NCBI GenBank assembly: GCA_963774955.1 | Contig: CAVZGV010000004.1 | Coordinates: 195,522 to 259,521, forward strand | Direction: 5' to 3' | Source: Candidatus Falkowbacteria bacterium | GTDB lineage: Bacteria; Patescibacteriota; Patescibacteriia; CAIXNZ01 | Length of the DNA stretch: 64,000 nt | Shown here: positions 4,558 to 49,167 of the stretch, in pieces | Layout of the letters: each line of letters begins with the position of its first letter | Numbering within the stretch: the stretch's first letter is position 1 | The notes under the pieces: generated by a model | What the model saw: the letters and a program-made list of their open reading frames with translations, nothing else | Databases searched by the model: none | What the model was told of the DNA's origin: nothing | Translations under genes and position numbers: made by a program

Positions 4558-4561
4558 AAAT

Positions 4562-18395: not shown

Positions 18396-18400
18396 ATCAT

Positions 18401-19729
18401 ATGATCAATTTTAAAAAAGAAGATTTTTTCATGACTGGTTCGGCTCAGTCGGCTTTGATTTATAACTACATTTCAGCCTTGGGTTCTTTAAGCTCATTTG
18501 GCAAAGCTAATGGTGGGATATTATTGTATGAAAATAATGTTGTAACGTTTTATTTTTCTAAACAAGGTATTATTGATTTTAAAAATAAATTGATCAAGAA
18601 GAAAATCGAATATTTTGAAAAAAATTTTACACGCTGGCAGGCAAAATGGCGGAACAAAGAAGCGATTCTTTATAAATTAGCTACACAGGGTAAAAATTGG
18701 CGTAAGAACTGGCAGCGTTTAGACAAATTATGTTTTAAGTACTGGCATGATTCTTATTTTGTTGATACCTATGATCATTTTGCCGAAGAATTTGACCGGC
18801 AAATTATTAAATCTTTAAAAAAGGCCAGGCTTGATCCGGAATTGCGCAATGAATTAGTCTTACCTGACGTAGCGACTAAAGTTCAGGAAGTAGCGGTGCA
18901 ATTACAGGCAGTTAAAGACGGACAATTATCCAAATCAGAATTTTTGAGAAAGTATTGGTATAGCCATGGCTCCTGGAACGGGGGAGAAGTATTAACCAAA
19001 GAATTATTAGACAAAGATCTGGCCAGTATAGATATTGATCTGCATTTTACAATCAGGAAAAAGATCCACGAGGAAGTTGATCCCAAATTGGATAAAAAGA
19101 CCTTAAATTTGCTCAGAGTCCTAAGATTCTTTGCGCTTTGGCGTGATGAGCGTAAGGCCTTTTTGCAAATGATCAGCTTGGGTTTTCGTAAAGTCGCCTT
19201 AGCTGCAGCCAACGAATTAAACGTTGAATCCAAAGCAATTGAATTTGCTTTCCGCGATGAAATTGATGAAGTTTCACATAATCCTCAAAAATTTTTAGAA
19301 CGCAAGAATAGATCAGTTTTATTACTTCCCAATTCTCAGACTCACGGCCAAATTTTGGTTGGAGCCGAAGTAGAGCCGTATTTCCAGGAATTTATGGCCA
19401 CGACCGAAGTCCGGGAAATCAAGGGCATTGTGGCCTCACCGGGCAAAGTCCAGGGAATTGCCAATGTAATTTTACGTCAGCATCAGTTTTTTGAATTTAA
19501 TGAAGGCGATATTTTAGTCACTACCATGACCCGGCCGGAATTTATGCCTTTAATGAAGAAAGCTAGCGCTATCGTCACTGACGAAGGCGGACTGACTTGT
19601 CATGCAGCCATTGTTTCCCGGGAATTAAAAAAGCCCTGCATTGTGGGCACAAAAGATGGGACCAGGATTTTTAAAACAGGGGATAAAATAGAAGTTGATG
19701 CTAACTTGGGGGTGATTAAGAAAATTTAA
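18401..19729 (+). CDS. Swivel-domain paralog 6
   Basis: 'WRDERKAF' motif. C-terminal 'GDILVTTMTRPEFMPLMKKASAIVTDEGGLTCHAAIVSRELKKPCIVGT'. Confidence 0.7.
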   Translation: MINFKKEDFFMTGSAQSALIYNYISALGSLSSFGKANGGILLYENNVVTFYFSKQGIIDFKNKLIKKKIEYFEKNFTRWQAKWRNKEAILYKLATQGKNWRKNWQRLDKLCFKYWHDSYFVDTYDHFAEEFDRQIIKSLKKARLDPELRNELVLPDVATKVQEVAVQLQAVKDGQLSKSEFLRKYWYSHGSWNGGEVLTKELLDKDLASIDIDLHFTIRKKIHEEVDPKLDKKTLNLLRVLRFFALWRDERKAFLQMISLGFRKVALAAANELNVESKAIEFAFRDEIDEVSHNPQKFLERKNRSVLLLPNSQTHGQILVGAEVEPYFQEFMATTEVREIKGIVASPGKVQGIANVILRQHQFFEFNEGDILVTTMTRPEFMPLMKKASAIVTDEGGLTCHAAIVSRELKKPCIVGTKDGTRIFKTGDKIEVDANLGVIKKI

Positions 19730-19739
19730 GTACATAAGT

Positions 19740-21251
19740 ATGAATCCATTAGAGCGGATTAAACAATTTAAACCAGGCGATTGGTATCCGGAAAATACTC
19801 CCTCCCGGCCTTTAATGGTATCAGGTATTGCCAGAGGCTTTACTACCAATATTCTTAAAAACTATAAGCTGGTGCTCTGTTATTTTAGTCAGGGAAAAGT
19901 GTCCTGGATTACTTTGATTAAAGACCAGCAGGAAATAGGAGAACTGATTTGGCAAAAGCAAATGCAGGATAATAAGTATTGGCTTAACCAATTTGCGACT
20001 TATGAGCAGATTAGAAATAATCTGGCTCAAAATTTTGACTTACTTAAAAATAAGTATTTAAGAGAGTTAAGTGATAATCAGCTTGTTGAGGACATAAATA
20101 ATTACGTGACTCAGCAGTGGGCCACCAGAAAATATGATAGTTTGGTAGATCCTTATCTGTTTTATGCGGAAAATAAACTCCCTGAGTTATTGAGGCAATT
20201 TGTCCGGGCCAAGGCGGAAATTGCCTTAAAGCCCCAGGAAGCAATGGAAATTATTACCAAACCAGAAGTACCTTTCTTTTTAAACAAATACTTTTTAGAT
20301 TTGATCGATATTGCCAGGTCAATCAAAAGTGATCATGAGTTAGCAGCTAAAATTTTAGCTGAAGAAATCAAGGAAGCTGATTTACCCCAAGGTTTAATTG
20401 AGCGAATTAAAAAGCATGCAGACAAATATTGCTGGATTAAAGTGGAAAGTTTTTATGGTGCCAATGAGTATACTTTCAATCATATTATAAACGAATTGCA
20501 AAAATTGTTAGCGGCTGATTTAGAGGCAGAAGAAAATCAACATAAAGCCTGGCAGCATAATAAAAAAATAAGGCAGGAATTTTTGATTAAGCACAATTTT
20601 AGTGATGAGATTCGGGCGTTTGCGGATTTGGCGCCTGTATTTGCCAAATGGCAGGATTTAAGAAAGATTAATTCCGTTATGACCACCTATTTGCACGCCA
20701 AATATCTGCAGGAATTGAGTAGGCGGCTAGGTTTGACTGAAGATGAATTGGCTTACCATGATTTTCAGGAGCTAACCCAAATATTACAGGGTAAAATCGG
20801 GCAGGCTGAATTACAGAAAAGAAAAGAAGGCTGTCTGTTTGTCTTTCAGAATGACGGTTTTGAAATGTTTTATAAAGAAGATGTGCAGGATTTAATCAAT
20901 GACATTGTAAATCCGGATTTAAAGGGGATTACTGAATTCAGCGGCATGGTTGCCTCGACCGGCCAGACCCAGGGAACGGTTAAAATTGTCATTACAGTTG
21001 AGGATATGCAGAAAATGAACAAAGGCGATATCCTGGTTTCTACCATGACCAGGCCGGAACATTTACCGGCCATGAAAAAGGCTAGCGCCATAATTACCGA
21101 TGAAGGCGGCATTACCTGTCACGCGGCCATAATTTCCAGAGAATTAAACATTCCCTGCGTCATTGGCACTAAAATCGCCACTCATGTTTTAAAAGATGGC
21201 GATCAAGTAGAAGTTGACGCCAATCAAGGTATAGTTAAAATAATTAAATAA
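19740..21251 (+). CDS. Swivel-domain paralog 7
   Basis: 'WQDLRKIN' motif. C-terminal 'GDILVSTMTRPEHLPAMKKASAIITDEGGITCHAAIISRELNIPCVIGT'. Confidence 0.7.
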   Translation: MNPLERIKQFKPGDWYPENTPSRPLMVSGIARGFTTNILKNYKLVLCYFSQGKVSWITLIKDQQEIGELIWQKQMQDNKYWLNQFATYEQIRNNLAQNFDLLKNKYLRELSDNQLVEDINNYVTQQWATRKYDSLVDPYLFYAENKLPELLRQFVRAKAEIALKPQEAMEIITKPEVPFFLNKYFLDLIDIARSIKSDHELAAKILAEEIKEADLPQGLIERIKKHADKYCWIKVESFYGANEYTFNHIINELQKLLAADLEAEENQHKAWQHNKKIRQEFLIKHNFSDEIRAFADLAPVFAKWQDLRKINSVMTTYLHAKYLQELSRRLGLTEDELAYHDFQELTQILQGKIGQAELQKRKEGCLFVFQNDGFEMFYKEDVQDLINDIVNPDLKGITEFSGMVASTGQTQGTVKIVITVEDMQKMNKGDILVSTMTRPEHLPAMKKASAIITDEGGITCHAAIISRELNIPCVIGTKIATHVLKDGDQVEVDANQGIVKIIK

Positions 21252-21260
21252 ATTAGAAAT

Positions 21261-22715
21261 ATGTTAACATTTTCAGATTGGCAAAATATTTTAAACGAAG
21301 ATTGGTATATCCAGGGCTTTAATGCCGCTCCGATTTTTCTTAATACCGCAGCATATAGTGGTTTGATTATGAAAGACAAGGTGGGGTTTGGCTACACTCA
21401 TTTTTTGTTTCAATACCAAAAGAAATATGCGGAAATGGGTTACTTAAATGATGATTTTATGCGTCTATGGCAGATTATCAAGGAAAAATTGGCGGCTGAC
21501 TCCGATTATTTATCTAAAGTTAAAAAACAGTATGAAACTGAATTGGAGCAATATGAGCCTATTCATAAAAGATTGGAGCAGGAAGATTTAACAAAACTGG
21601 ATGATTCAGAAATCATTAAATTATTAAAAAGCTCTTGCCGGAATATGACTGATGCGGTTGGCATTGCGCATTTGATCGAGCCGATCGGCATTTTTTTGGA
21701 GCAGGAATTTAAAGCTGATTTAAAAAATTTTGTTCAGGAGGAAAAAGAATATAATCGCATTTTCGGCATATTGTCCACGCCGACCCAAAGTTCATTTTTA
21801 GCGCTTGAAGAACAGGAATTAAAAAACATTGCGGCTTTGAAATCTAATCAACAGGCTGCCGCACTGGCTGAACATGCCCGAAAGTATTTTTGGCTGAATA
21901 ACAGTTTTGCCGGGCCGCAGAACATTGATCCGGCGCAATTCAGTAAAAGATTGGCAGCCTTTAAAATGCAAAAAGTTGAAAATCCCTCAGTTTCAGCGGC
22001 TGAACAAAAGAGTGGCTTAATTAAGACTTTAAGGTTAGATCAGGCAATCATTAAAAAGATTGGAATTATTGATTACTGCACTATTTGGCAGGATGAACGC
22101 AAAATCAATGTGCTTAAAGCAATCGGATATTTAGGCAAAGTATTAGCTGAACTCGGACGACGTTTGAACATTGATCCTGTTAATCTTTATTTTTTGGCAA
22201 CTACTGATTTTTTAAATATTAAATCCATAGCCGAGTTAAAATCCTTAGAACCTGAATTGCTGGCTCGACAAGCTGGTTCATTCTTCCTGATTAACGGTCT
22301 AAACCAGGAAGAAGTCGCCAGGGGAAGTGATTATGAGAAATTAATCGATTATAAAAAGGAATTGGAAGTTACGCAAAGCTTTAAAGGTACTGATTTGCAC
22401 GGTTCTATTGCCAATGGCGGCACAGCGATCGGCATTGTAAAAGTTTGCAAAAACTTAAGCCAAATTCACAAAGTTCAGCCAGGAGATATTTTAGTTGCTT
22501 CCATGACGCGTCCCGAATATATTCAGGCAATTAAAAAGGCTGCGGCCATTATAACTGATGAGGGCGGCATTACCTGTCATGCAGCCATTGTGTCCCGGGA
22601 ATTAAATATCCCGGCCGTTATTGGTACCAAAATCGCCACCAAAGTTTTAAAAGACGGCATGAAAGTCGAAGTCAAAGCCAATCACGGCTTGGTCAGAATT
22701 TTAGAAAATATTTAA
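21261..22715 (+). CDS. Swivel-domain paralog 8
   Basis: 'WQDERKIN' motif. C-terminal 'GDILVASMTRPEYIQAIKKAAAIITDEGGITCHAAIVSRELNIPAVIGT'. Confidence 0.7.
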   Translation: MLTFSDWQNILNEDWYIQGFNAAPIFLNTAAYSGLIMKDKVGFGYTHFLFQYQKKYAEMGYLNDDFMRLWQIIKEKLAADSDYLSKVKKQYETELEQYEPIHKRLEQEDLTKLDDSEIIKLLKSSCRNMTDAVGIAHLIEPIGIFLEQEFKADLKNFVQEEKEYNRIFGILSTPTQSSFLALEEQELKNIAALKSNQQAAALAEHARKYFWLNNSFAGPQNIDPAQFSKRLAAFKMQKVENPSVSAAEQKSGLIKTLRLDQAIIKKIGIIDYCTIWQDERKINVLKAIGYLGKVLAELGRRLNIDPVNLYFLATTDFLNIKSIAELKSLEPELLARQAGSFFLINGLNQEEVARGSDYEKLIDYKKELEVTQSFKGTDLHGSIANGGTAIGIVKVCKNLSQIHKVQPGDILVASMTRPEYIQAIKKAAAIITDEGGITCHAAIVSRELNIPAVIGTKIATKVLKDGMKVEVKANHGLVRILENI

Positions 22716-22731
22716 ATAGTATATTAATATT

Positions 22732-24198
22732 ATGTTGACTCTCGATCAAGTTAAAAATATCAAATGGTATCGCCAGTCAGGGGCGGGGATTCCATTGAGC
22801 ATTGGCATGCCATTTTTGGGCATTGCCATCATGAATAAAGTTTCCGGTTTTTATTACCCCAATGATTTGGGTACTTTTTTGAAAACTGGCAAGGGTTTTA
22901 CTTTTTATCATTACTTTGATTATTTTTTGACCCTGGAACAGGTCAAGAAAATTTTTAAAACATTGGAACAAGATCCTGAGCATTTTAGCAAACTTAAGGG
23001 GAAATTTTATCAGGCCGGACCTAAAATGGAAGCCGAGGGTTTAGCGATTCTCGATAAGTCAGTATTTTCTCACGAGTTCCAGCAGGGTTATCAAAAGACA
23101 TATGATTACACTATGGATTTTTGGGGTAATTCACTTTACGTTGACCTGATGGATCCTTTTGAGATTCAGGTCATTGATTTTATTTTTGGTGACATCAAAA
23201 AGAAAATAAACAAAGCAGAATTAAATATTTTAATGAGTCCGGATGAATTGTCCAATTACCAGAAGCAGCAAGCTGAGCTTTTGGAACTGCTTAAAGTCGC
23301 CCAGGCAAAAGGGATTGATAGCAGCGAGGTCTTAACAGGTGCAAAAGAATTATCCCGTAGATATTACTGGCTCAAAAATGATTATGAAAAAGTGGAATTT
23401 CTTGATGCCGATTATTTTATGAATGAAATCAAGAAATTGTTGGTAGATCCCAAGGAAGCTGATAATATCAGCAGAAATCTGCAGAAAAGTCGTGAGTTAC
23501 AGATTGAGAAGCAGACAATTATTAAAAAATATAATTTTTCGGAGATATTGGTTAATCATCTGAATTTTTTCAACTGGGTGACGATCTTGCGAGATGACCG
23601 CAAAAAATATAACCAGATCAGCAATTATATTCTGATTAAAACCATTGAAAAAATTTCTGAGGAAGCAGGAATTGATCTTGAGCTTTTAAAATATGCCATG
23701 CCCAATGAAATAATTAAAATAATTAATAAGGATGCTAAAATCGCGACTGAACTGGAGCAAAGAGCCAATTTGGGCTTAATCGTGTTTGCCGATACCATTG
23801 AAGTGCTGGAAGTTTACTCTGGTAAAATCGCCAAAGAATATTTTGACATCATTGAAAGTACTATTGCTGCCTCGGAAATTAAAGGTACGACTGCTTCACC
23901 CGGTAAAGTTATCGGCACAGCCAAAATTATTTTAAGTCAGCATGATTTTGATAAAATGAAGCCAGGCGATATTATTGTCGCTTCCATGACCAGGCCGGAA
24001 TATGTGCCGATTATGAAAATTGCTCTGGCGATTGTAACTGATGAAGGAGGGATTACTTCGCACGCAGCTATTGTTTCGCGGGAATTAAATATACCCTGCA
24101 TTACTGGAACCCAGGTAGCAACGAGGTCTTTACAAGACGGAGATTTAATTGATGTTAATGCCGATCATGGTTTAGTAAAAATAGTTAAGAAAGCGTAG
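22732..24198 (+). CDS. Swivel-domain paralog 9
   Basis: 'LRDDRKKY' motif. C-terminal 'GDIIVASMTRPEYVPIMKIALAIVTDEGGITSHAAIVSRELNIPCITGT'. Confidence 0.7.
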   Translation: MLTLDQVKNIKWYRQSGAGIPLSIGMPFLGIAIMNKVSGFYYPNDLGTFLKTGKGFTFYHYFDYFLTLEQVKKIFKTLEQDPEHFSKLKGKFYQAGPKMEAEGLAILDKSVFSHEFQQGYQKTYDYTMDFWGNSLYVDLMDPFEIQVIDFIFGDIKKKINKAELNILMSPDELSNYQKQQAELLELLKVAQAKGIDSSEVLTGAKELSRRYYWLKNDYEKVEFLDADYFMNEIKKLLVDPKEADNISRNLQKSRELQIEKQTIIKKYNFSEILVNHLNFFNWVTILRDDRKKYNQISNYILIKTIEKISEEAGIDLELLKYAMPNEIIKIINKDAKIATELEQRANLGLIVFADTIEVLEVYSGKIAKEYFDIIESTIAASEIKGTTASPGKVIGTAKIILSQHDFDKMKPGDIIVASMTRPEYVPIMKIALAIVTDEGGITSHAAIVSRELNIPCITGTQVATRSLQDGDLIDVNADHGLVKIVKKA

Positions 24199-26583: not shown

Positions 26584-27540
26584 ATGTCTGAATTAATCAA
26601 AATTTTCACAGAACTTAATAAAAACAGCACTCATTTAGCCGGAGGTAAAGGCGCGTCTTTGGGCGAGATGACCCAGGCAGGGATTCCGGTACCGCCTGGT
26701 TTTGTGGTTACGGCCAAAACCTTTGACCGTTTTCTGGCAGAAACTGATTTGACCCAGGAAGTAGAAGCCCAATTGGATAAGGTTAATTATGATGATGTAG
26801 CCTCTGTAGAAGAAGCTTCCAAGACAATTGCCGATTTGATCCATGATGCCAAGTTTCCGGAAGATTTGGAAATTGAAATTATGGCGGAATTTAAAAAATT
26901 AGATGTGGAATTTGTGGCAGTCCGTTCGTCAGCTACGGCCGAAGATTCTTCAGTGGCTTCCTGGGCAGGTGAGCTGGAAAGTTATCTGAATACTGATAAA
27001 AATCATTTATTGGGCAATGTTAAAAGATGTTGGGCTTCCTTATTTACCCCGCGAGCTATTGTTTATCGCATGGAAAAGGGTATGCGCGAAACAAAAGTAT
27101 CTGTTGCCGTGGTAATTCAGGCCATGGTGCAGTCAGATATTTCCGGTATTTGCTTTACAGTCCATCCGGTAACCAAAGATAAGAATCAGCTGATCATTGA
27201 GGCGGGATATGGTTTGGGTGAGGCTATTGTTTCCGGCCAGGTTACGCCTGATTCTTATGTTATCCATAAGGATGATCTGGAAATTATAGATATTAATATC
27301 GCCGACCAGGAAAGAAAAATTATGCGCAAACCAGAAGGCGGTAATCACTGGGTTGTGATTGATGCCGCAGACAGGGCTAAGCAAAAATTAGCTGGCGAGC
27401 AGATTATTGAATTAACTAAAATTTGTCTCAACATTGAAAAGCATTATGGTTTCCCCTGTGATATTGAATGGGTCATGACCAAAAAGTTAAATGAGTGGGA
27501 GTTCTTCATCGTGCAGTCACGGCCGATCACTACTTTATAA
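26584..27540 (+). CDS. Stand-alone PPDK_N-type ATP-grasp nucleotide-binding domain (the N-terminal domain of PEP synthase / pyruvate,water dikinase / rifampin phosphotransferase). It has no swivel or PEP-binding domains.
   Basis: 'LAGGKGASLGEMTQAGIPVPPGFVVTAKTF', 'VAVRSSATAEDSSVASWAGELESYLN', 'VAVVIQAMVQSDISGICFTVHP', 'LIIEAGYGLGEAIVSGQVTPDSYV'. It ends at 318 aa, followed by a terminator. Confidence 0.75.
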   Translation: MSELIKIFTELNKNSTHLAGGKGASLGEMTQAGIPVPPGFVVTAKTFDRFLAETDLTQEVEAQLDKVNYDDVASVEEASKTIADLIHDAKFPEDLEIEIMAEFKKLDVEFVAVRSSATAEDSSVASWAGELESYLNTDKNHLLGNVKRCWASLFTPRAIVYRMEKGMRETKVSVAVVIQAMVQSDISGICFTVHPVTKDKNQLIIEAGYGLGEAIVSGQVTPDSYVIHKDDLEIIDINIADQERKIMRKPEGGNHWVVIDAADRAKQKLAGEQIIELTKICLNIEKHYGFPCDIEWVMTKKLNEWEFFIVQSRPITTL

Positions 27541-30583: not shown

Positions 30584-31348
30584 TTATTTTACTTCCAGGT
30601 TTACAATATCTTTTCTTTCCCAAGCCAGATTAAATATCTGCCTTAGGGCATCGGCGATATCAGGATTATTTATGACAATGCCCTGGGCATAGCGGTGGGA
30701 GGTTATTTGCACGAATTTATCAAAAATCTCAATAGAGATATTGCTGTCATATTTATTTCTATCCAATAATTTAAGGTTAATTAAATTGTATTTAGGATCT
30801 TGGTGTTTTATATATTCATGAATTGTCGGGTCATCAACAGTAAGTCCCTTTATTCTTATCTTAGCCCGTCTCATGGCTTCATTTACTTCAGGCCAGTAAG
30901 CCAATAATGCCGGGTCAGTGTCGCGGCTATGAGCAAAAAAAGCAGAGATGGGAGCATCTTTTTTATATGCCTTAATACCTTTGGCATACATATCTTTTAT
31001 GCCGGCTAAACCTTCATAATAGGTAACACTGACTTCATTTTTCTTGCCTTTCCTTAAAGCCTTTAATTCACCAAGTGCTTCTTGCGCAGTCTGCAATTTG
31101 CTTTGCGCCTGGGCAAAAAGATCTTCCGGCGGAGTCGCAACATACTGCAGTACCTTTTCGCGGGGGATTTTGGTGACTGCGCTTTTATCAATCAATTCAT
31201 CTAAAATCACATAAGTCGTGGATTTTTTAATCTGGCTATGCTTGGACACTTGATAGGCAGTAGCCTTGCCAAGCTGAAGCAGGCTCAAATACGTTTGGGC
31301 CTGTTTTTCGTTTAAACCGATATTTTTAAGTGATTGTATAAGATCCAT
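30584..31348 (-). CDS. TrmB-family transcriptional regulator (N-terminal winged HTH plus C-terminal domain)
   Basis: 'KQAQTYLSLLQLGKATAYQVSKHSQIKKSTTYVILDELIDKSAV' HTH. 254 aa. Confidence 0.5.
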   Translation of the reverse strand: MDLIQSLKNIGLNEKQAQTYLSLLQLGKATAYQVSKHSQIKKSTTYVILDELIDKSAVTKIPREKVLQYVATPPEDLFAQAQSKLQTAQEALGELKALRKGKKNEVSVTYYEGLAGIKDMYAKGIKAYKKDAPISAFFAHSRDTDPALLAYWPEVNEAMRRAKIRIKGLTVDDPTIHEYIKHQDPKYNLINLKLLDRNKYDSNISIEIFDKFVQITSHRYAQGIVINNPDIADALRQIFNLAWERKDIVNLEVK

Positions 31349-31576
31349 ATGTTTATGACAAGCCGCAACTAATATGTCATGGTGAGCTTTATCGATTCAG
31401 GAGATTTTAAGGGACAAGCCCTAAAATCAAAGCATTCAAAACTTACATTTCTATTATAGCACACCCTGAAAAAATAGTCAATATTTTTGACGAATGTGAA
31501 ATGAGTAATTTAAGCAATATGGCTAATATTCGTAGAAATAACTTCCTATTTATATTCGCATTATTAGTCATAAGTC

Positions 31577-31605
31577 TTGACAAAATTTCAAAGATATGCT
31601 ATACT
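31577..31605 (+). promoter_or_regulatory. Consensus sigma70-type promoter (TTGACA-17-TATACT) driving the first gene of the G+C-rich island
   Basis: TTGACA at about 31577-31582 and TATACT at about 31600-31605 with a 17-nt spacer. A ~120 nt leader runs to the ATG at 31726. Confidence 0.45.
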
Positions 31606-31725
31606 GCTATATCAGGCTGAGACAGGGACAACCTAGTTCAAGCTTGAAAACAACGAAAACCAAGTTCTTTAAAGATAAACATACCCTCAACAGTCCGGCA
31701 ATGCGCGGATAAAAAGGAGAGACTG

Positions 31726-32163
31726 ATGATTTCTTATAAGGTTATCGTGGATTATACCCTGACCCTGGCCGAAATGATCGTTGCTGGCAACCATGGGCGG
31801 TTCTGGGATGAGAATGATGATTCCCGCTTTCCGCTTCAGGGAACTGGTCAGCATGAAGTGGAACTGGTTCTGGTTCCAGTTTATCTGAATCAGGATGTCG
31901 AGACTTGGGATGTTCTGGAATATATGGACAGTCAAGGCTTGGAACCGGCCAACATCGAGCAGTTGCTCGCCTTTGGCACGACGTATCCGAAAATTCGCAG
32001 AGAATTTTCGATAGTCGCCCTTGGGTCATCCACAAAGGGTAGATATCATCGATACTATCCGTGTCTGGTGAGTTACGATGGCCGACGTGATCTACACCTC
32101 TGCCAGACTGATGACCACCCTTGGGATGGCGAAAGTTTTTTTCTAGCCGTCCGCACAAAATAA
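31726..32163 (+). CDS. Hypothetical protein, family A (cytoplasmic paralog of 36264-36800)
   Basis: Shine-Dalgarno 'aaaaaggagag'. Alignable with the 36264 protein (YK.xVxY.L...EM..A.N, ...VP..., GL..AN..QLLA, IVA.GS). Markedly G+C-richer than the genome. Confidence 0.5.
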   Translation: MISYKVIVDYTLTLAEMIVAGNHGRFWDENDDSRFPLQGTGQHEVELVLVPVYLNQDVETWDVLEYMDSQGLEPANIEQLLAFGTTYPKIRREFSIVALGSSTKGRYHRYYPCLVSYDGRRDLHLCQTDDHPWDGESFFLAVRTK

Positions 32164-32173
32164 AGTTGCATCA

Positions 32174-32260
32174 GGGGAGAAAACAGAGAACAATATCTGT
32201 TTTGCTCCCCACCTAAATTTAGTCTTTAAGAGAATCTTGAAGATTGAAATGTAGGGGTTC
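32174..32260 (+). repeat. Island cassette element copy A (CCCC-ended hairpin, then ACCTAAATTTAGTCTTTAAG, then TTGAAAtgtAGG..GTTCTTTA)
   Basis: Shares the hairpin and both conserved blocks with the copies at about 33204-33290 and 34000-34080. A degenerate copy lies at about 32927-32990. Confidence 0.5.
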
Positions 32261-32310
32261 TTTAAACCAAAACAATCAAACTGTCAGTTAGCTGACAAAA
32301 GGAGTTTATC

Positions 32311-32553
32311 ATGCAGACTTTTGCTAAGGTTAACGTTTGTGGTAATCGGGTACGCACCATTCAGATCCAGGGGCAGAAATTGCCCTCGGGCATATCTGAT
32401 CAAGTGTGGAGCTTGAACGGGCTTTTAGAAGCCCTCAAGTTCTACCCCAACGTGCAGTTCAGACGTTGGGTCCGGGAGTATCGGGTTTACACCAGGTGGT
32501 TGCCTCTGAACTGCTTGCCCGTAAAACTCCTGGAGCTGGTCAGGCCCCGCTAG
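32311..32553 (+). CDS. Hypothetical small protein (80 aa)
   Basis: Shine-Dalgarno 'caaaaggag'. Follows cassette copy A. Confidence 0.35.
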   Translation: MQTFAKVNVCGNRVRTIQIQGQKLPSGISDQVWSLNGLLEALKFYPNVQFRRWVREYRVYTRWLPLNCLPVKLLELVRPR

Positions 32554-33203
32554 GTGTGAGCGAAATTACACTAAGTCTTCGGAAAGATTCCGAAGCCCGA
32601 TTAACTTATTCAGTTGATTGGCAAGTATCTCCCTTAAAAAAGGAGATAAATGGGGAGTAACATATAACTCCCCTCTAAGTTTTAGACTTGCAATTGGCAT
32701 ATAGCTGATTGAAAGCCTGAAAGATTGGATTTTAGCTCTTTAAAACATCCACCCGCAACCAGTTCGCCAAAGGCGGACAAGGAGGGAACGATGATTATCA
32801 AGTTTATCGGCATTATGGCGTCCCTGGGCGTTCCGTATCTCGAAGGTCGCTTCGAGGACGGGCTCATCCGAGCCTACATTCTGCCGAACGGCAATGTCAT
32901 CGAGGTAAAACTCGAGTGACCTTGCCTCTTATATTTAGTCTTTCAAATGGCTTTGGCTGGTTGAAAGATTGAAACATAGGTCTGAAGTAAATTAAATCTA
33001 TGTAACCACGGGAGTAAGGATACAAACCCTTTACTCCTCAGGCGGTCAGAGTAATTAACTGGCCATTACCCTTGCCGTCATTTGCCGATGCGAGAAAAGG
33101 CAATGCAATTCTTGGGGAAGATCCGAAGCGCGCTAGGGACTACGCGGACAATATCAGCCCCTGGGGGAAGTAGGAGCCTTCCCCAGAGTTATTTCAAAAA
33201 GCT

Positions 33204-33290
33204 GGGGAAATGCATATAATGCTTTCCCCACCTAAATTTAGTCTTTAAGTTAATAACTTAAAGTTTGAAATATAGGTTTGAGTTCTTTAC
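33204..33290 (+). repeat. Island cassette element copy C
   Basis: 'GGGGAAATGCATATAATGCTTTCCCC' hairpin followed by ACCTAAATTTAGTCTTTAAG ... TTGAAATATAGGTTTGAGTTCTTTA. Confidence 0.5.
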
Positions 33291-33342
33291 ATTTTTTATC
33301 ATACCCAGCCATTCCGTTATACGGGATAAAAAGGAGATTCTC

Positions 33343-33963
33343 ATGGCAGCTGCAAAACCAGCTTCAAGTTCCAGGTCTGTTTCTCGTTCCCAGTCGGTTG
33401 CTAGCTCGGAAAGTTATTACCAGGCAGCGGCTGAACCAGAGGCGGTAAGCGTACCAAAAGCCATGGCGCAAGCGCAGGCACAAGCTGAAGCAGTGGCAGA
33501 GGCAATGCTTGTCATTGTCTGTGAATGCTGCGACGCGATATTGGGCATGATTGCGGATACAGCGCGTCCGCCGATTGAAATGCGTTGCCCGCATTGCGGA
33601 TATGCATTTATGCTATATCAGACGCCCAGATGGAATTTTGATTATCCGCAGTGGGCAGTTCCAGCTTGCGACAAAGAGGTCATTGAGAAAAATCCTAAGC
33701 CTGACCAAAATCAAGGAGGCATTAGAATGGAAATCACCACCGGTTGTGGCATTGGCTGGTACCAGCAGCTGGGCTGTATCGTCATCAACAACCCTTTGGG
33801 ACAGAGAATGTTCTGGCCGAACGGCGATGACAAAAAGTCCGTGTCCTTGATCAAGGATGAAAATGATTTCTTTGCTTTCGCGGAAATCATTGCCGAGATC
33901 AACGGAATGAAGATCGTTGAGGCCAAAAGATTCCACTACGGCCCGATGTTCTTCTTGGGTTAA
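33343..33963 (+). CDS. Zn-ribbon protein with an Ala/Ser/Gln-rich N-terminus and a C-terminal ~75 aa 'GCGxGWYQQ...GPMF' domain (family B)
   Basis: Shine-Dalgarno 'aaaaaggag' before the ATG at 33343. 'CECCDA...CPHCG' zinc-ribbon-like motif. The C-terminal domain is duplicated as a stand-alone gene at 34867-35106. Confidence 0.5.
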   Translation: MAAAKPASSSRSVSRSQSVASSESYYQAAAEPEAVSVPKAMAQAQAQAEAVAEAMLVIVCECCDAILGMIADTARPPIEMRCPHCGYAFMLYQTPRWNFDYPQWAVPACDKEVIEKNPKPDQNQGGIRMEITTGCGIGWYQQLGCIVINNPLGQRMFWPNGDDKKSVSLIKDENDFFAFAEIIAEINGMKIVEAKRFHYGPMFFLG

Positions 33964-33999
33964 TAAACCTAGCCGCCACTTGCGAGCGAAATCGCAAAA

Positions 34000-34080
34000 G
34001 GGGAGTAAAATGAAAATTTTGCTCCCCACCTAAATTCTGTCTTTAAGATAACTTCTTAAAGTTTGAAATATAGGTAAGCG
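34000..34080 (+). repeat. Island cassette element copy D
   Basis: 'GGGGAGTAAAATGAAAATTTTGCTCCCC' hairpin followed by ACCTAAATTCTGTCTTTAAG ... TTGAAATATAGGTAAGCGTTCTTAAA. Confidence 0.5.
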
Positions 34081-34121
34081 TTCTTAAAACGTTAATTGTC
34101 TGATAAACAAGGAGGAATCTG

Positions 34122-34325
34122 ATGAAATACCACGAAGTGGCTCGTAAATTGATCCTGCTTGGTTGTCGGGAAATCATGACCAAGGGCGGACAACACCGTA
34201 AATGGGTTAACCCGCAAACACAGGCCATGGCAGTCCTACCTTATTGGGGTTCCAAGGAACTCAAATCTGGTACGGTCAAAGCTGTGTTCCGACGTCTTGG
34301 GGTTAACGAATATTGCAACTGTTAG
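34122..34325 (+). CDS. hicA: HicA-family mRNA interferase toxin (YcfA-like)
   Basis: 67 aa. 'KYHEVARKLILLGCREIMTKGGQHRKWVNPQTQAMAVLPYWGSKELKSGTVKAVFRRLGV' fits the HicA pattern (KGSH-like 'GGQHRK', followed by 'G.K.L..GT....L'). Shine-Dalgarno 'aaggagg'. Confidence 0.6.
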   Translation: MKYHEVARKLILLGCREIMTKGGQHRKWVNPQTQAMAVLPYWGSKELKSGTVKAVFRRLGVNEYCNC

Positions 34326-34372
34326 CAACTGCCGCCTATCTCGGCGGGGTAAAAATTGATTAGGAGAAAAAA

Positions 34373-34843
34373 ATGAGTCCAATGATGATGTGTCCGGTTT
34401 ATCGTCCGGAACCAGAGAGGACGCCTGTCATGGAATCCCGGCCTCAGCTGAGGGCAGAAACAGACAAGGATAAAATTACCCGATTCTTTGGGGATTTTAC
34501 TTCCACACCATTGGCCGTTTGTCCTTCGTGTAAGCATGAACTGACAGACGAAGAAATCAGGAAGGGTTTTTCCACTGACCCGCTTGATTTCAACACCACC
34601 TGTCCTAAGTGTGGAACACGATTCTTCGCCTCTCTGATTATCAGCGTTGACGGTAGGGTGGTTGAGCAAATCACTTACTTCTGCCCTGATCAGACTCTAC
34701 ATCAAATGAAGACTATCAAAGTCGAGCGCGGCAGAATCGGTATTGTCTACCTTGGCAAACATGATCGGCAGCTTTTCTTCAACATCGTCAGGCATTTTCG
34801 CACTTACAACCAAGGTCTTAAAAGACTGAAACTTCTGGTCTAA
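34373..34843 (+). CDS. Hypothetical Zn-ribbon protein (156 aa). It sits where a HicB partner would be expected but is not HicB-like.
   Basis: Shine-Dalgarno 'aggag'. 'CPSCKHE...CPKCG' four-Cys motif. Confidence 0.4.
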   Translation: MSPMMMCPVYRPEPERTPVMESRPQLRAETDKDKITRFFGDFTSTPLAVCPSCKHELTDEEIRKGFSTDPLDFNTTCPKCGTRFFASLIISVDGRVVEQITYFCPDQTLHQMKTIKVERGRIGIVYLGKHDRQLFFNIVRHFRTYNQGLKRLKLLV

Positions 34844-34866
34844 CTATGAGGTAAAGGAGCTTAAGG

Positions 34867-35106
34867 ATGATAATGATTACCAGTGGCTGTGGCCTCGGTT
34901 GGTACCAGCAGCTTGAATGCATTGTCGTCAATGATCCTTCAGGGCAGAGAATCTTCTGGCCGAACGGTGATGACAAACGCATTTGTAGTTTGATTCATGA
35001 TGAAAGCGAGTTCTATGCTTTTGTCGAAATCATCGCCGAACTTAACGGGCTGAAGATCGTTGAGGCTAAAAGGTACCACTATGGCCCGATGTTCATTCTT
35101 GGCTAA
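34867..35106 (+). CDS. Stand-alone family B domain protein (79 aa)
   Basis: Aligns along its whole length with the C-terminus of the 33343-33963 protein ('TSGCGLGWYQQLECIVVNDPSGQRIFWPNGDDK...IVEAKRYHYGPMFILG'). Followed by the conserved 'CCGCCAnTTGCGAGCG..AATCGCAA' hairpin, as is its paralog. Confidence 0.5.
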   Translation: MIMITSGCGLGWYQQLECIVVNDPSGQRIFWPNGDDKRICSLIHDESEFYAFVEIIAELNGLKIVEAKRYHYGPMFILG

Positions 35107-35215
35107 TTAAAATAAACCGCCAGTTGCGAGCGGGAATCGCAACAGAAAGAACCAGGTGTAAAATCGGTTCAAAAAAGAGCCAGGTGTGAAACCGGCTCTT
35201 TTATATTTGCTCAGA

Positions 35216-36109: not shown

Positions 36110-36263
36110 GTTTAGAGGCTTTCATACATTCAGTCTACCAAATCTTCCTATTATTGACAAAAAGTTTTTTTAATTGTAAGTTTGGGGTAGTTACTCAAGT
36201 GTCCTTTTAACATATTTGGGGTAAACCAGCTAACATGTGCCATTCATGGCAGGAGGTGCAATC

Positions 36264-36800
36264 ATGAAAAAAATAGAAAGCAGGGGATTGGTAGTAATGA
36301 TTTTTGTTTTAATCATCATTGTAAGTGTCGGAATACAATGTGATAATCAAGTCCCGAAAAACCTAAGGGTTTATAAGGCGACAGTGAATTATAATTTGTC
36401 TCCTGATGAAATGCTTATAGCAAGCAATTATCAATGGTGTGCCGGCGATCTTAAAAAGGATCAATTAACCGGTAAGGGCGTTCAGGAGATTGAACTTTTT
36501 GTAGTCCCCATCGAAAAAGAATTTTTGTCGGGGGAAGTTGTTCAGTACTTAAATAGTTTAGGGCTTAAATCTGCAAATTTTGCGCAACTACTCGCATTAG
36601 CAGCAATCGATCCTGATATTGAAAAAGATGGAGCGATTGTAGCAATGGGATCTCAATGGTGGGATTACGACAAAGACCGTGTTTGTCCTGTATTACGTAA
36701 CGATAATGGTAAACGCGGTATTGCGATCCAACGGATGAGATATTTAAATTTGCTGGATGTTACTTGGGATACACAATACCGTTTTTTAGCCTATAAATAG
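36264..36800 (+). CDS. Hypothetical secreted/lipoprotein-like protein, family A (paralog of 31726-32163 with an N-terminal signal/anchor)
   Basis: Shine-Dalgarno 'ggcaggagg' before the ATG at 36264. 'MKKIESRGLVVMIFVLIIIVSVGIQC'. The rest aligns with the 31726 protein. Confidence 0.5.
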   Translation: MKKIESRGLVVMIFVLIIIVSVGIQCDNQVPKNLRVYKATVNYNLSPDEMLIASNYQWCAGDLKKDQLTGKGVQEIELFVVPIEKEFLSGEVVQYLNSLGLKSANFAQLLALAAIDPDIEKDGAIVAMGSQWWDYDKDRVCPVLRNDNGKRGIAIQRMRYLNLLDVTWDTQYRFLAYK

Positions 36801-46292: not shown

Positions 46293-46321
46293 TTGACAAA
46301 TGACTATTAATATGCTATACT
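46293..46321 (+). promoter_or_regulatory. Consensus sigma70-type promoter TTGACA-17-TATACT upstream of the G+C-rich lipoprotein gene
   Basis: TTGACA at about 46293 and TATACT at about 46316. The 'ATATGCTATACTG' -10 context matches the island promoter at 31600. Confidence 0.45.
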
Positions 46322-46410
46322 GTAGAGATTGAAGAAATTCGGAAATTGTCTTTAGTTATACCAATAACAAGTTGCAAACAAACTGCCCTCAGGGCAGAGG
46401 AGGAAAAATC

Positions 46411-46950
46411 ATGAAGAAAGTCACCGTTCTTTTTATGGCGTTGATCGCGACCGTCGCGATTTTCACTGGCTGTGCCACTGCCAAACGCGGCGATACCTCG
46501 TATCACGGGCCGAGTAATGCTCGGGCCGAAGAAGTGATCGAGCCCAGCCCTGGCTGGTCCGTAGCCCAGGAGGCCGTCCGCAACAACCCTAATGCCAACG
46601 TGCGCATGCGGTCGGGCAGTGACGTTTTCGAGTACAACCCTCCCGGTTCCACCCCAGCTCCTGGCAATGATCTGCCTGCCAATGGTATGCTCAAAGGCAC
46701 TTTTCACAACGGTATGCCCGACGTGATTGATGTTAAAATCATCCATTCTGGCAGTGTCGTGGACAGCTTTTCCGTCCAGCCGGGACAGTGTAAGCCTGTG
46801 CCTTTGCCTCCTGGCAAATACAGCTATACTGTTTCGAATCGCGGGACTGGAGAGAACGTCAGCCTGCCTTTCGAGCTCATGGGAGTGAGAAACTACACCT
46901 CTCCATGTGGAGGCGGGCACGTAGATTTCGTGCTCTACGTCGTGCCGTAA
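46411..46950 (+). CDS. G+C-rich lipoprotein of unknown function (probably horizontally acquired)
   Basis: Shine-Dalgarno 'gaggagg'. 'MKKVTVLFMALIATVAIFTGC' lipobox. Clearly G+C-richer than the surrounding genes. Hairpin terminator at about 46961-46995. The antisense ORF 46315-46920 is judged spurious. Confidence 0.55.
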   Translation: MKKVTVLFMALIATVAIFTGCATAKRGDTSYHGPSNARAEEVIEPSPGWSVAQEAVRNNPNANVRMRSGSDVFEYNPPGSTPAPGNDLPANGMLKGTFHNGMPDVIDVKIIHSGSVVDSFSVQPGQCKPVPLPPGKYSYTVSNRGTGENVSLPFELMGVRNYTSPCGGGHVDFVLYVVP

Positions 46951-47003
46951 AATGAATATAAAAGGGCAATCCTTCGGGATTGCCCTTTTCTTTTTGAATT
47001 TTT

Positions 47004-47441
47004 TTAGGTGCTGGCGCCTGGATTCATAGGACCGCCACCACCTTCAAGTGATGCCCTTAAGATGGCATTAACCACAAAGGTTGTGATGGCATAGGCAGTC
47101 GCAATAATTAACACCCCAATAACCGCATAAATAATGACATTCTTGGCATGTTCAACTTTTTTGGCTTCACCGGTTGAGGTCATGTATAAAACTCCGCCAT
47201 AAATCATTAAAATTACAAAGACTATACCTAAAAGGCCAAGCATTATTTGAATGATTGTCGCGGCAATTTGTGCCGGGTGAGCCGGTTCATCCTGTCCATA
47301 CACCTGGCCGCCGAAATTTTGAATAGAATTGGTGATAGAACCGCCGGCAGGAGTGTCGCCGGTTGCGAAAACAGCGCTAACGGACATTAAAATGCAACAA
47401 ACAATGATTAAGAGTTTAAAGGCCAGATATATTTTTTTCAT
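47004..47441 (-). CDS. Pilin-like small secreted protein with a two-TM core (VirB2/TrbC-like topology), array member 1
   Basis: Signal peptide, variable segment, then 'IIQIMLGLLGIVFVILMIYGGVLYMTSTGEAKKVEHAKNVIIYAVIGVLIIATAYAITTFV'. Confidence 0.55.
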   Translation of the reverse strand: MKKIYLAFKLLIIVCCILMSVSAVFATGDTPAGGSITNSIQNFGGQVYGQDEPAHPAQIAATIIQIMLGLLGIVFVILMIYGGVLYMTSTGEAKKVEHAKNVIIYAVIGVLIIATAYAITTFVVNAILRASLEGGGGPMNPGAST

Positions 47442-47464
47442 ACAATTTTACTTTAATTTATATT

Positions 47465-47851
47465 TTATTGAGGAATTAATGATTGTTCAATGCTGCTGGA
47501 AACAAAATAAGCTATGGTGTAAGCCATTAAGACAATGGCCAGGCCGATGACCGCAGTAATCAGCAGCCCTTTAGCTTTTTGTACTTTTTTTGGCTCACCC
47601 TGAGAAAACATATATAAAGTACCGCCGTAAATAAAGACGATCATGAAAATTACGCCCACAAAAACAATCAGGCTTTTTATTAGGACGGCGGCAAAGCTTT
47701 GGGGCGTGGCTTTGCCCAGATTAGTTACATTGCCGGCGGTATTTTGTAAACCTCCGGAAAATTGGCTAGCCTGCACGGCTTGAATTCCAAAAGTAGAAAA
47801 TAAAATAAATATCAAAAAGAAAATGGCCAGACATGTATAAAATTTTTTCAT
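47465..47851 (-). CDS. Pilin-like two-TM protein, array member 2
   Basis: 'LIKSLIVFVGVIFMIVFIYGGTLYMFSQGEPKKVQKAKGLLITAVIGLAIVLMAYTIAYFV'. Confidence 0.55.
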   Translation of the reverse strand: MKKFYTCLAIFFLIFILFSTFGIQAVQASQFSGGLQNTAGNVTNLGKATPQSFAAVLIKSLIVFVGVIFMIVFIYGGTLYMFSQGEPKKVQKAKGLLITAVIGLAIVLMAYTIAYFVSSSIEQSLIPQ

Positions 47852-47864
47852 AAATGTAAGCGTT

Positions 47865-48251
47865 TTATTTTAGGGATGTTTCCAGGGTTGTGGCAATGAA
47901 ATATGTAACCGCATAGGCCGTCATCACAATAAGAAATCCAAAAATTGCCAGTTTGAGCAGATCCTTGGCCTTTTTAATTTTGGACTCTTCGCCTAGCGAA
48001 GTCAGGTAAGTAAATCCGCCGTAAATAAACATAATAACAAAGACTATGGCGATTAGGCCCAGTAAAACTTGGATTATTTGAGCGGCCAAACCAGCCAGCG
48101 AAGTCTCTGTCTTTATGCCGGCGCCTTCGCCAGTTTGGGCAATAAAGCCATTTACATTGCTTAAATTCAAAGGCTGGGCAAAGGTTATGGTTGCTTGGGC
48201 GCCAAGACTAATAACTAAAAGTAAAATAATGATCCAATGGGATATTTTCAT
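47865..48251 (-). CDS. Pilin-like two-TM protein, array member 3
   Basis: 'IIQVLLGLIAIVFVIMFIYGGFTYLTSLGEESKIKKAKDLLKLAIFGFLIVMTAYAVTYFI'. Confidence 0.55.
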   Translation of the reverse strand: MKISHWIIILLLVISLGAQATITFAQPLNLSNVNGFIAQTGEGAGIKTETSLAGLAAQIIQVLLGLIAIVFVIMFIYGGFTYLTSLGEESKIKKAKDLLKLAIFGFLIVMTAYAVTYFIATTLETSLK

Positions 48252-48282
48252 AAACCATAATTTAAAAAGATACTTATTGGGC

Positions 48283-48780
48283 TTAACGGCAGTCGCAACA
48301 ATGAGGTGATTCAGCTGGGCAGCTTAATTGACCCAGGTCAGGACAACTAGCGCAATTTTCCTGGGCGCATGTTCCGGGGCAGGTTTGCCCGGCCGGCTGA
48401 GTGGCATTTTCAATGGTACTGGCCACAAAATAGGTAATTGAATAGGCGGCCATAATTATTATAAACCCGATTATGGCTTTGCTGATAATTTGTTTGGCCT
48501 TTTTTATTTTTGCCTCCTCGGCAGCGGAGGTCATGTAAGTAAAGCCTCCGTAGATAATTAAAATTAGAAAACCAGCGCCGACCAAGCCTAAAAGAGCGTT
48601 GATTACCCGGGCAATAATTAAGCCGAGATTACCCTGATTTTCCGAATAACCAATGGTATTTCTGGTGGAGTTTAAAAATTCATTCTGATTGGCAAAGCTA
48701 TAACCAAAAGCCGGGCTAAAGTACAAAAACAAGCCCGAAATAATAAGCACTAAAAATATTAAAAATAATTTATTTTTCAT
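48283..48780 (-). CDS. Pilin-like two-TM protein with a Cys-rich C-terminal tail, array member 4
   Basis: 'VINALLGLVGAGFLILIIYGGFTYMTSAAEEAKIKKAKQIISKAIIGFIIIMAAYSITYFV' followed by '...CPGTCAQENCASCPDLGQLSCPAESPHCCDCR'. Confidence 0.55.
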   Translation of the reverse strand: MKNKLFLIFLVLIISGLFLYFSPAFGYSFANQNEFLNSTRNTIGYSENQGNLGLIIARVINALLGLVGAGFLILIIYGGFTYMTSAAEEAKIKKAKQIISKAIIGFIIIMAAYSITYFVASTIENATQPAGQTCPGTCAQENCASCPDLGQLSCPAESPHCCDCR

Positions 48781-48798
48781 TTTATTTAAAAGGCCCGG

Positions 48799-49167
48799 TT
48801 ATTGCGCGGTTAGCGTACTGAAAATCAGCGAGGTAATCGCATAGGCTGCGCCTAAAACCATGGCGCCGATAATGGCCCAGGTAATAACTGTACGACCCTT
48901 TTTTAAGGTTGTTTCAGTGCCTGCTGAAGCCATCATTAATATTCCGCCATAAATAATTAGAAACAAGAAAAGTGATCCGGCCAGAGCTAAGCCTGCGCCG
49001 GCAATCCGACCCAAAAAAGCCGGGACGCCACCGCCGCCAAATTCAGGTAATTTAGCTTCTGACTGAGTTCCGGGAAGGCCATAATCAGCAGTCGCCTGGG
49101 TTTGATTTAACGGTACTAGGCAAGTCAACGTGACTATAAATAAAGATAATATTATAAATGTTTTCAT
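48799..49167 (-). CDS. Pilin-like two-TM protein, array member 5
   Basis: 'GAGLALAGSLFLFLIIYGGILMMASAGTETTLKKGRTVITWAIIGAMVLGAAYAITSLI'. Confidence 0.5.
   Translation of the reverse strand: MKTFIILSLFIVTLTCLVPLNQTQATADYGLPGTQSEAKLPEFGGGGVPAFLGRIAGAGLALAGSLFLFLIIYGGILMMASAGTETTLKKGRTVITWAIIGAMVLGAAYAITSLIFSTLTAQ

Follow-up and report, generated by a model that had tools for sequence, protein, structure and literature searches.

A 3.6-kb, G+C-rich putative operon of a Candidatus Falkowbacteria bacterium (contig CAVZGV010000004.1, positions 195,522 to 259,521 of the forward strand; this 64-kb stretch is the window, and its positions serve as coordinates) comprises seven plus-strand genes, g1 to g7. 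These are unrelated small genes, and they are separated by a recurring two-hairpin element. The element is structured, conserved and specific to such gene arrays, a conclusion we hold with high confidence; a full-text literature search retrieved no earlier description of it, and it appears to be previously undescribed. We propose, with a probability of about 0.5, that it is an intercistronic RNA punctuation or stability module whose conservation also makes it a recombination joint for the swapping of gene cassettes. The operon, hereafter the island, is bounded by a divergent trmB-family gene on one side and by a convergent 87-aa gene followed by ruvC on the other; related loci and contigs used for comparison carry L-numbers (L013, L018 and so on).

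The 19-mer CCTAAATTTAGTCTTTAAG occurs three times at ≤3 mismatches, compared to 0.08 occurrences expected from shuffles, and the string AAG.TTGAAA is invariant in an alignment of six intergenic regions. A covariance model (R1) built from 10 copies, copy 3 of the window not being among them, retrieved five sense-strand copies in the window, all within the island; no other window sequence reached their scores, even with the cmsearch filters switched off. The repeated unit seen in an initial annotation of the window, which was made from the sequence alone, is thus real, and the copy at 32652 had been missed there. The five copies, each consisting of the hairpins P1 and P2, are as follows:

32174..32257, plus strand: element copy 1 (cmsearch 70.5 bits), with P1 at 32174–32210 and P2 at 32211–32255
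32652..32730, plus strand: element copy 2, diverged (60 bits)
32904..32982, plus strand: element copy 3, degenerate (37.7 bits, E = 1e-5), its P1 eroded and overlapping the end of g3
33204..33278, plus strand: element copy 4 (79.3 bits)
34000..34076, plus strand: element copy 5 (77.6 bits)

P1 is a G+C-rich hairpin closed by GGGGAG/CUCCCC, with a stem of 6–16 bp and an interior that varies in length and sequence. P2 abuts it directly, with 0–1 nt in between. The conserved base region of P2, RCCUAAAUUYAG...YUGAAAUAUAGGU, forms a base of 5 bp (RCCUA/UAGGU), a 2x3 internal loop (AA/AUA) and a middle stem of 5 bp (UUYAG/YUGAA) that usually ends in a G.U pair; a 1x1 mismatch then leads to a variable, compensated terminal stem-loop. 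The 3′ arm of the middle stem supplies the TTGAAA that had earlier been taken for a –35 box. A third, lineage-specific hairpin (P3) and an A-rich leader precede the Shine-Dalgarno sequence. All 16 copies lie in sense orientation between co-oriented genes. The initial annotation had each unit followed by an open reading frame (ORF) with a Shine-Dalgarno sequence, which holds for four of the five (ATG with an AGGAGG-type Shine-Dalgarno sequence, 46–65 nt downstream of the unit); after the degenerate unit at 32904 come 220 nt in which no ORF is convincing.

All copies fold alike, with z-scores from –2.4 to –8.5. In the 10-copy alignment, 95.6% of cells were paired and 7 of 23 pairs had changed on both sides, a value reached by none of 500 shuffles, and slid controls dropped to 28–63% paired. 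Among the 18 model matches, 16 of the 23 pairs had changes on both sides, although this alignment leans towards the structure because it was fitted to the model. The clearest structural evidence comes from the tip of P2, where three unrelated terminal stems share one base: CUUUAAG/CUUAAAG in most copies, AAUCUUGCUU/AAGCAAGAUU in L018 (9703–9639) and UUUUCUUC/GAAGGAAA in both copies of L034. In degenerate copies, compensation reaches the base as well (UCUAA/UUGGA and UCAUU/AAUGA); in copy 2, base and inner stem are both altered on both sides (UCUAA/UUGGA). Two copies read CTGAAR for TTGAAA, a change that turns a G.U into a G-C pair, yet would damage a –35 box. With respect to strand, G.U outnumbered A.C combinations 28 to 5 within the model pairs when read as sense strand, one-sided changes ran from C-G to U.G and from U-A to U.G, and the sense fold was the more stable of the two in 11 of 16 copies. 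The G.U excess and the stabler sense fold therefore point to RNA or, less likely, to sense-strand DNA.

Beyond the window, scanning one genome from each of 185,579 species for the exact pattern yielded 16 matches, with the full unit in two genomes only, each a single exact match and both from the candidate phyla radiation (CPR): a Candidatus Uhrbacteria metagenome-assembled genome and a Candidatus Falkowbacteria bin. A metagenome scan added three further loci, and contigs fetched via TrmB homologues one further lineage (L034 to L036). The element is thereby known from the window and four other CPR lineages (L013, L018/L021, L020 and L034). In all five, the units lie within a co-oriented array that diverges from a trmB-like gene and sits behind a near-identical promoter, ACTTGACA-N17-TATACT with ATATGCTATACTGCT. 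The TrmB proteins of the other lineages share 25–31% identity with that of the window, and the unit core is identical at 41–45 of 47 nt (87–96%). The element is not general to trmB neighbourhoods, as trmB paralogues elsewhere (L022–L030, L037) lack it. For instance, L022, the closest long-contig relative of the window (TrmB 60% identical), has the same promoter, the leader box AAGTTCTTTAAA and two small genes, but no element. Rfam yielded no window match at gathering thresholds, and in E-value mode (island, L013 and L020) no family recurred across loci: matches on or beside elements fell far below gathering and were to ncr1575 in the window and to another weak family in L013 and in L020. Cassette genes across the element loci are mostly ORFans; recognizable ones encode HicA, receiver domains, an HD domain or a methyltransferase, and the g1 family is the sole gene family common to the arrays of the window and L034.

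Comparison of closely related strains suggests how these arrays change. L018 and L021, whose TrmB proteins differ at one residue and whose flanks are 88–90% identical, share a 99.4%-identical segment that begins with an element, includes a 101-aa gene and extends to the following P1-GCCTAAATT, whereas the genes beside this shared cassette are unrelated (93 vs. 70 aa upstream; 364 vs. 100 aa downstream). Homology stops exactly after GCCTAAATT, on the 5′ side of P2, and the remaining P2 goes with the downstream gene. In L031 and L032 the array is ‘empty’, consisting of the methyltransferase gene, P1, GCCTAAATTC, AATCT and a terminator, and the TrmB of L031 is 84% identical to that of L018. L020 and L034 (TrmB 83% identical) have no cassette in common; L034 carries a C-terminal relic of a g1-family gene ahead of an element. 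Arrays therefore seem to change one gene at a time, most joints being at the element, and cassette exchange at the element is a conclusion in which we place moderate confidence. Indeed, the initial annotation had likened the island to a cassette array, and the likeness stands: the element punctuates unrelated small genes in other CPR genomes, and close strains differ by whole genes.

The G+C content of the island, flagged from the outset, is 0.459 compared to 0.389 for the remainder of the window, and no other 3.6-kb stretch is as rich (mean of all such stretches 0.392, sd 0.024). Likewise, the G+C content at third codon positions (GC3) of the seven island genes is 0.50–0.70 vs. 0.39 ± 0.04 in 22 background genes. 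These outlying values suggest a foreign origin of the window's cassettes, which we count in favour of the proposed module. The DNA around them is chromosomal, as the window begins at dnaA-dnaN, and its context includes dnaA, a penicillin-binding protein, RuvC and a tRNA.

As to transcription, every array has one near-consensus promoter while its elements lack a conserved –35/–10 pair, and P1 lacks a U-tract while array ends have canonical terminators; both observations are in line with read-through. In four of the five window copies P1 has no U-tract, the sequence that follows being ACCUAAAU; only copy 2, with a T-rich stretch after its P1, passed a terminator scan. The promoter at the 5′ edge of the island had been recognized in the initial annotation, and the signals at the two ends of the array are:

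31577..31605, plus strand: sole consensus promoter of the array, TTGACA-17-(TG)cTATACT (11/12 matches, TG upstream; the best of the region)
31612..31725, plus strand: 5′ untranslated region (UTR) of g1, with a predicted 5′-terminal hairpin (UCAGGCU...AGCUUGA) followed by the leader box AAGTTCTTTAAAG
35177..35208, plus strand: canonical intrinsic terminator ending the array (AGAGCC...GGCTCT TTTATATTT), as read from the sequence; U-tract present, unlike P1

Conservation of the promoter-associated ATATGCTATACTGCT extends to L013, L020, L031 and L034; L022 (ATATGCTAGACTACT) and L034 (...TATACTGAG) show close variants of it. The 5′ UTR of g1 holds a partial copy of the element (ACCTAGTTCAAGCTTGAAAAC at 31631–31651 and AAGTTCTTTAAAG at 31662–31674); its 5′-terminal hairpin includes a partial copy of the P2 3′ arm, and a homologous leader is found in L022. 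For the window, L020, L034 and L031, folding predicts a hairpin at the start of the primary transcript. In the window and L020, this predicted hairpin shows homology with the P2 3′ arm, and the remainder of the primary leader, P3 and the A-rich box, recurs in the internal leaders. P2 would therefore hold, for each internal cistron, the place that the 5′-terminal hairpin holds in the primary mRNA.

In the model that we favour, the array would be read through from its one consensus promoter as a polycistronic RNA, in which P1 would be the hairpin that protects the upstream cistron at its 3′ end and P2 the 5′-proximal hairpin of the downstream cistron. An endonuclease would probably cut at or near the P1|P2 junction and thereby release, per cassette, a stable, standardized mRNA composed of P2, P3, the A-rich leader and the Shine-Dalgarno sequence ahead of the gene. 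The ~50 conserved nt would at the same time serve as homology for recombination within and between genomes, so that genes would be gained, lost and replaced cassette-wise. Early mRNA of phage T7 offers a parallel: it contains intercistronic RNase III processing hairpins, and processed operon mRNAs carry stabilizer hairpins at their 3′ and 5′ ends. Like the element, the T7 sites are irregular hairpins of ~17–20 bp between cistrons of a transcript that starts at upstream promoters. In T7 the hairpins remain at the mRNA ends after cleavage, whereas cleavage here is a proposal; moreover, the T7 sites come without cassette turnover, and the near-identity of the element across lineages is unusual for a processing site.

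Several observations weigh against this model. Read-through, cleavage and stabilization are all deduced from sequence. Each stretch of DNA examined carries the element at one locus, with no copies in the other 60 kb of the window or in 4–20 kb of flanks, whereas an RNA-processing signal of general use should turn up in further operons. Sequence conservation covers the stems and also the unpaired loop bases, which exceeds what a passive stabilizer needs and implies a specific partner, be it a protein or a nuclease. P1 and P2 abut without a single-stranded linker, an arrangement atypical for an RNase Y or RNase E site. Finally, some strain junctions lie off the elements, one of them just past the methyltransferase stop codon, and L031 and L018 diverge 6 nt further in, so the junction nucleotide is not constant. 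With junctions not all at elements and their nucleotide varying, homologous or illegitimate recombination fits at least as well as a site-specific reaction.

The strongest rival, in itself unlikely, regards P2 as an attC-like single-stranded DNA recombination site in an integron-like platform devoid of an integron integrase. A recombinase encoded elsewhere would then read the base (akin to R and L boxes), the internal loop (akin to the central spacer) and the variable tip; insertion and excision would take place at RCCTAAATT, and trmB, the promoter and the partial leader element would correspond to intI-Pc-attI. P2 parallels attC in architecture. An attC site is an imperfect hairpin whose base is conserved, whose central spacer is unpaired and whose terminal structure varies (PMC2727003), and in P2 a conserved basal stem is likewise followed by an asymmetric internal loop, by a second stem and by a terminal structure that varies; RCCTAAA matches RYYYAAC at 6 of 7 positions. 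The setting is also reminiscent of integrons and of attC-site clusters that have no integron integrase (CALIN), with co-oriented, mostly promoterless ORFan and toxin cassettes of deviant G+C content behind a single promoter, a divergent conserved gene nearby and no integrase close by. Near-identical strains differ in cassettes, homology between L018 and L021 stops at GCCTAAATT, and the element is restricted to a single locus and patchily distributed across distant lineages at 87–96% core identity. However, the AAC/GTT triplets of the RYYYAAC/GTTRRRY boxes are absent, all strong copies reading RCCTAAA...TATAGGT, and extrahelical bases, which in attC direct the choice of strand, or single-base bulges of the attC type are not evident. 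While attC sites use the bottom strand, antisense to the cassette ORFs, P2 folds better as the sense strand, as the 28-to-5 excess of G.U testifies. Breakpoints fall on the 5′ side of the hairpin and vary in their nucleotide, whereas attC crossover occurs at R′, at the 3′ end of the site, and leaves the site with the upstream ORF. P1 lacks a counterpart in attC; the element is highly conserved in sequence, attC mainly in structure; and the divergent gene encodes a winged helix-turn-helix regulator, not IntI. An adjacent IntI is needed for a complete integron, though not for a CALIN. The scan of 48 window ORFs turned up neither a tyrosine or serine recombinase nor a Phage_integrase domain, and complete integrons have been reported to be absent from very small genomes (PMC4889954). 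A related possibility, still more doubtful in our view, is that trmB-linked arrays form a CPR-specific, integron-like gene-capture platform without an integron integrase, with P1-P2 as a new structured recombination site. There, the sense strand would fold and be cut at or next to RCCTAAATT by a recombinase or nuclease, cassettes would move between distantly related ultra-small bacteria, and the promoter with the partial leader element would serve as the site of insertion and expression.

The initial annotation had instead interpreted the unit as a terminator (P1) joined to a promoter (TTGAAA...TAnnnn), which would make every gene its own transcription unit in the manner of morons or of the promoter early stem-loop (PeSL) repeats of T4-type phages; this we now regard as quite improbable. 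TTGAAA does resemble a –35 box, and in copy 4 TTGAAA-17-TACATT scores 9/12, but a single one of the five window copies passed a loose σ70 scan (9-of-12), the spacing between TTGAAA and TAnnnn is 11, 11, 13, 16–18 or 20 nt across copies, and TTGAAA, an arm of a covarying stem, becomes CTGAAR where pairing is thereby restored. The true promoters of these loci come close to the consensus and have an extended –10 element (TTGACA-17-TGnTATACT). Termination finds some backing in the T-rich stretch after P1 of copy 2 and in the array of L013, which ends with a P1-type hairpin followed by TTTTTTATT; elsewhere, ACCUAAAU stands in place of a U-tract, and L031 has a canonical terminator no more than 20 nt after P1, where it would be superfluous were P1 itself to end transcription. 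Stem-loops of PeSL act as terminators or attenuators; the hairpin at issue here, P1, is stable and G/C-closed, with no U-tract after it. For PeSL, a role of the repeat as both expression signal and recombination joint was demonstrated experimentally (Arbiol et al. 2010, PMC2839356; Comeau et al. 2014, PMC4122927), and the stem-loops may sit inside or beside the promoter (PMC2839356). The element shares with them short, conserved intergenic repeats with a G/C-rich stem-loop that end in the Shine-Dalgarno sequence of the next gene, a position ahead of ORFans in a hyperplastic region, and differences between close relatives (in PeSL, insertions, deletions and replacements) that end in the repeats (here L018, L021 and L031; L020 vs. 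L034). Yet PeSLs are defined by a consensus σ70 early promoter, none of which is conserved here. Moreover, the element comprises two abutting hairpins, the second with a covarying tip, it resides on a cellular CPR chromosome rather than in a T4-type phage, and in contrast to PeSL with its mini-circles the present array is known from sequence alone. We set the element apart from both PeSL and attC because their defining features, when tested, were found lacking, and the proposed cassette-wise turnover would resemble that of PeSL without a promoter in the repeat.

Morons share with the island small accessory genes of deviant composition between conserved genes, with flanking hairpins, but there is no prophage context, no promoter or terminator belonging to each gene and no phage homology. 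The phage-derived cluster suggested earlier gained no support: neither pattern scans of IMG/VR nor blastn, in which the island was compared with 50,697 phage and 72,556 plasmid records, returned a match; a phage or plasmid origin was rejected on these grounds. Among PHROG families, HicA was the sole clear match, and g6 had weak matches to function-unassigned families.

Two further explanations carry little weight. It is very improbable that the unit is a double-stranded DNA operator whose palindromes, CTAAATTTAG and CTTTAAG-N5-7-CTTAAAG, are bound by a TrmB-type regulator or another dimeric protein. Linkage to a trmB-like gene in all five lineages and stems conserved in sequence besides their pairing would be in line with it, but the inner palindrome is swapped for unrelated self-complementary sequences with spacers of 3–8 nt, and it is thus pairing rather than a binding sequence that is conserved. 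Wobble pairs follow a strand-specific pattern, no promoter adjoins the element to be regulated, and the conserved candidate operators near trmB (TTGACGA; GTCAA...TTGAC palindromes) are unrelated to it. Least probable of all is a selfish dispersed repeat, akin to miniature inverted-repeat transposable elements, repetitive extragenic palindromes or Correia elements, that accumulated in the operon by chance. The unit is short, structured and intergenic and has degenerate copies, as such repeats would, but it lacks terminal inverted repeats with target-site duplications, keeps strictly to one orientation in all 16 copies and to one type of locus, has no RAYT or transposase that was found with it, and is conserved across lineages far above neutral expectation.

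Other identities of the unit were considered and discarded. A σ70 promoter was excluded by spacing, covariation and promoter scan, and an intrinsic terminator by the missing U-tract; extended –10, σH, σB and T7-type promoter consensuses, compared by eye only, gave no consistent fit. No Rfam ribozyme model matched, and a hammerhead core was absent by inspection, which speaks against a self-cleaving ribozyme. A tRNA-like minihelix (P1 and the RCC after it resemble an acceptor end) is at most a speculation: ARAGORN reported only a tRNA-Leu at 37315, and P1 stems measure 6–16 bp. Sites of dif/Xer (pdif) modules did not fit either, since the sites here are direct rather than inverted, and no dif-like 11-6-11 core was seen by inspection.

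CPR bacteria, or Patescibacteria, have tiny genomes, few recognized mobile elements and almost no characterized regulatory RNAs. Against this background, the element provides a specific, searchable structure of ~70 nt that marks a locus of exchanged ORFans and of toxin, receiver-domain and zinc-ribbon genes. If it acts as RNA, accessory genes would have in it a standardized expression cassette, and these organisms their first defined signal for processing or stability; if it acts as DNA, it would be a new cassette-capture system. In either case, it would offer a handle on the flexible gene pool of CPR genomes, a testable account of how that pool is expressed from a single TrmB-controlled promoter, and a portable part for the genetics of Patescibacteria, which have become tractable only recently.

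The regulatory gene beside the array and its promoter are:

30584..31348, minus strand: trmB-family winged helix-turn-helix regulator gene (Pfam PF01978, E = 1.4e-14), divergent from the array
31453..31481, minus strand: trmB promoter, TTGACT-17-TATAAT, overlapped by the palindrome TAGTCAATATTTTTGACGA (candidate TrmB operator)

In an alignment of eight trmB-array intergenic regions, GTCAA is invariant. Palindromes over the trmB –35 box are conserved, namely TAGTCAATATTTTTGACGA in the window (31453–31495) and in L022 (7975–7995) and TTGACGAATTTACCGTCA in L020 (~1690–1730) and L034 (~9960–9990); L020 and L034 additionally have a second TTGACGA ~40 bp upstream of the array –35 box. These palindromes near the trmB and array promoters are candidate TrmB operators for both divergent promoters and are unrelated to the P1-P2 element.

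The genes of the array, together with its one ORF-less interval, are:

31726..32163, plus strand: g1, 145 aa, of a large uncharacterized family; paralogue at 36237–36800; also the first array gene in L034
32311..32553, plus strand: g2, 80-aa ORFan, GC3 0.69
32791..32919, plus strand: g3, 42-aa ORF with a strong Shine-Dalgarno sequence
32983..33203, plus strand: ORF-less interval between copies 3 and 4, 220 nt, with an extra P1-like hairpin GGGGAAGTAGGAGCCTTCCCC at 33164–33184
33343..33963, plus strand: g4, 206 aa, zinc-ribbon part fused in frame to a 78-aa domain
34122..34325, plus strand: g5, HicA-family toxin, 67 aa (Pfam PF07927, E = 1e-9; phrog_353)
34373..34843, plus strand: g6, 156 aa, with two CxxC pairs (zinc ribbon)
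34867..35106, plus strand: g7, ORFan of 79 aa, paralogous to the C-terminal part of g4

The g1 family comprises 2557 clusters at 50% identity (E < 1e-3); g1 had no match in Pfam or NCBIfam, and the family profile found nothing in PDB. Members are typically ~200 aa long with an N-terminal extension, or consist of tandem repeats. The paralogue just beyond the island edge (36237–36800) has a hydrophobic N-terminus; in L034, the homologue lies at 9262–9732 and the C-terminal relic at ~8560–8480. The interval at 32983–33203 is probably a decayed or non-coding cassette. The 78-aa domain occurs twice, as the separate gene g7 behind the zinc-ribbon gene g6 and fused to a different zinc-ribbon part in g4, where it retains its own Shine-Dalgarno sequence and ATG at 33727 (signals within 33714–33729). 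The C-terminal part of g4 and g7 share 75% amino-acid and 79% DNA identity, and the duplication (stretches compared: 33343–33963 and 34373–35132) takes in the 3′ hairpin TTGCGAGCG...CGCAA. A word-indexed search of 5.8e9 proteins with g7 returned g7 alone and missed even its paralogue g4, a sensitivity at which distant relatives are not excluded.

Of the products named in the initial annotation, HicA was confirmed by its Pfam match, while the zinc ribbons were called from CxxC pairs and from Pfam matches below threshold. In g6, the gene directly after HicA, no HicB domain was detected, only zinc-ribbon signals, and g6 may be a non-canonical antitoxin to HicA. In agreement with the initial annotation, a Pfam scan of 48 window ORFs (46 of which are ≥100 aa), the island included, detected no integrase, transposase or recombinase domain.

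Further observations concern related loci and other parts of the window. In L013, the P1-type hairpin with TTTTTTATT noted above is the last of that array (2090–2125, minus strand), so this type of hairpin is a true terminator at the array's end; at 2523–2564 (minus strand), a 13-codon mini-ORF and a hairpin lie between a degenerate element and the next gene. L026, a CPR contig found via its TrmB homologue, has a 2-kb stretch without a called gene (3678–5638) adjoining dnaA. Within the window, seven large paralogous ORFs on the plus strand between 9680 and 24198 (9680–11353, 12036–13208 and five in a row at 16887–24198) all have a PEP-utilizers mobile domain at their end (PF00391, with E-values of about 1e-24 to 1e-26). 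Their 300–430 N-terminal residues are variable and unassigned, apart from an HTH_26 domain in one, making this an unusual tandem family; a stand-alone PPDK_N ATP-grasp gene follows it at 26584–27540. On the minus strand, a run of small genes at 46315–51409 includes two that encode T4SS_pilin-domain proteins (49742–50338 and 50420–51409).

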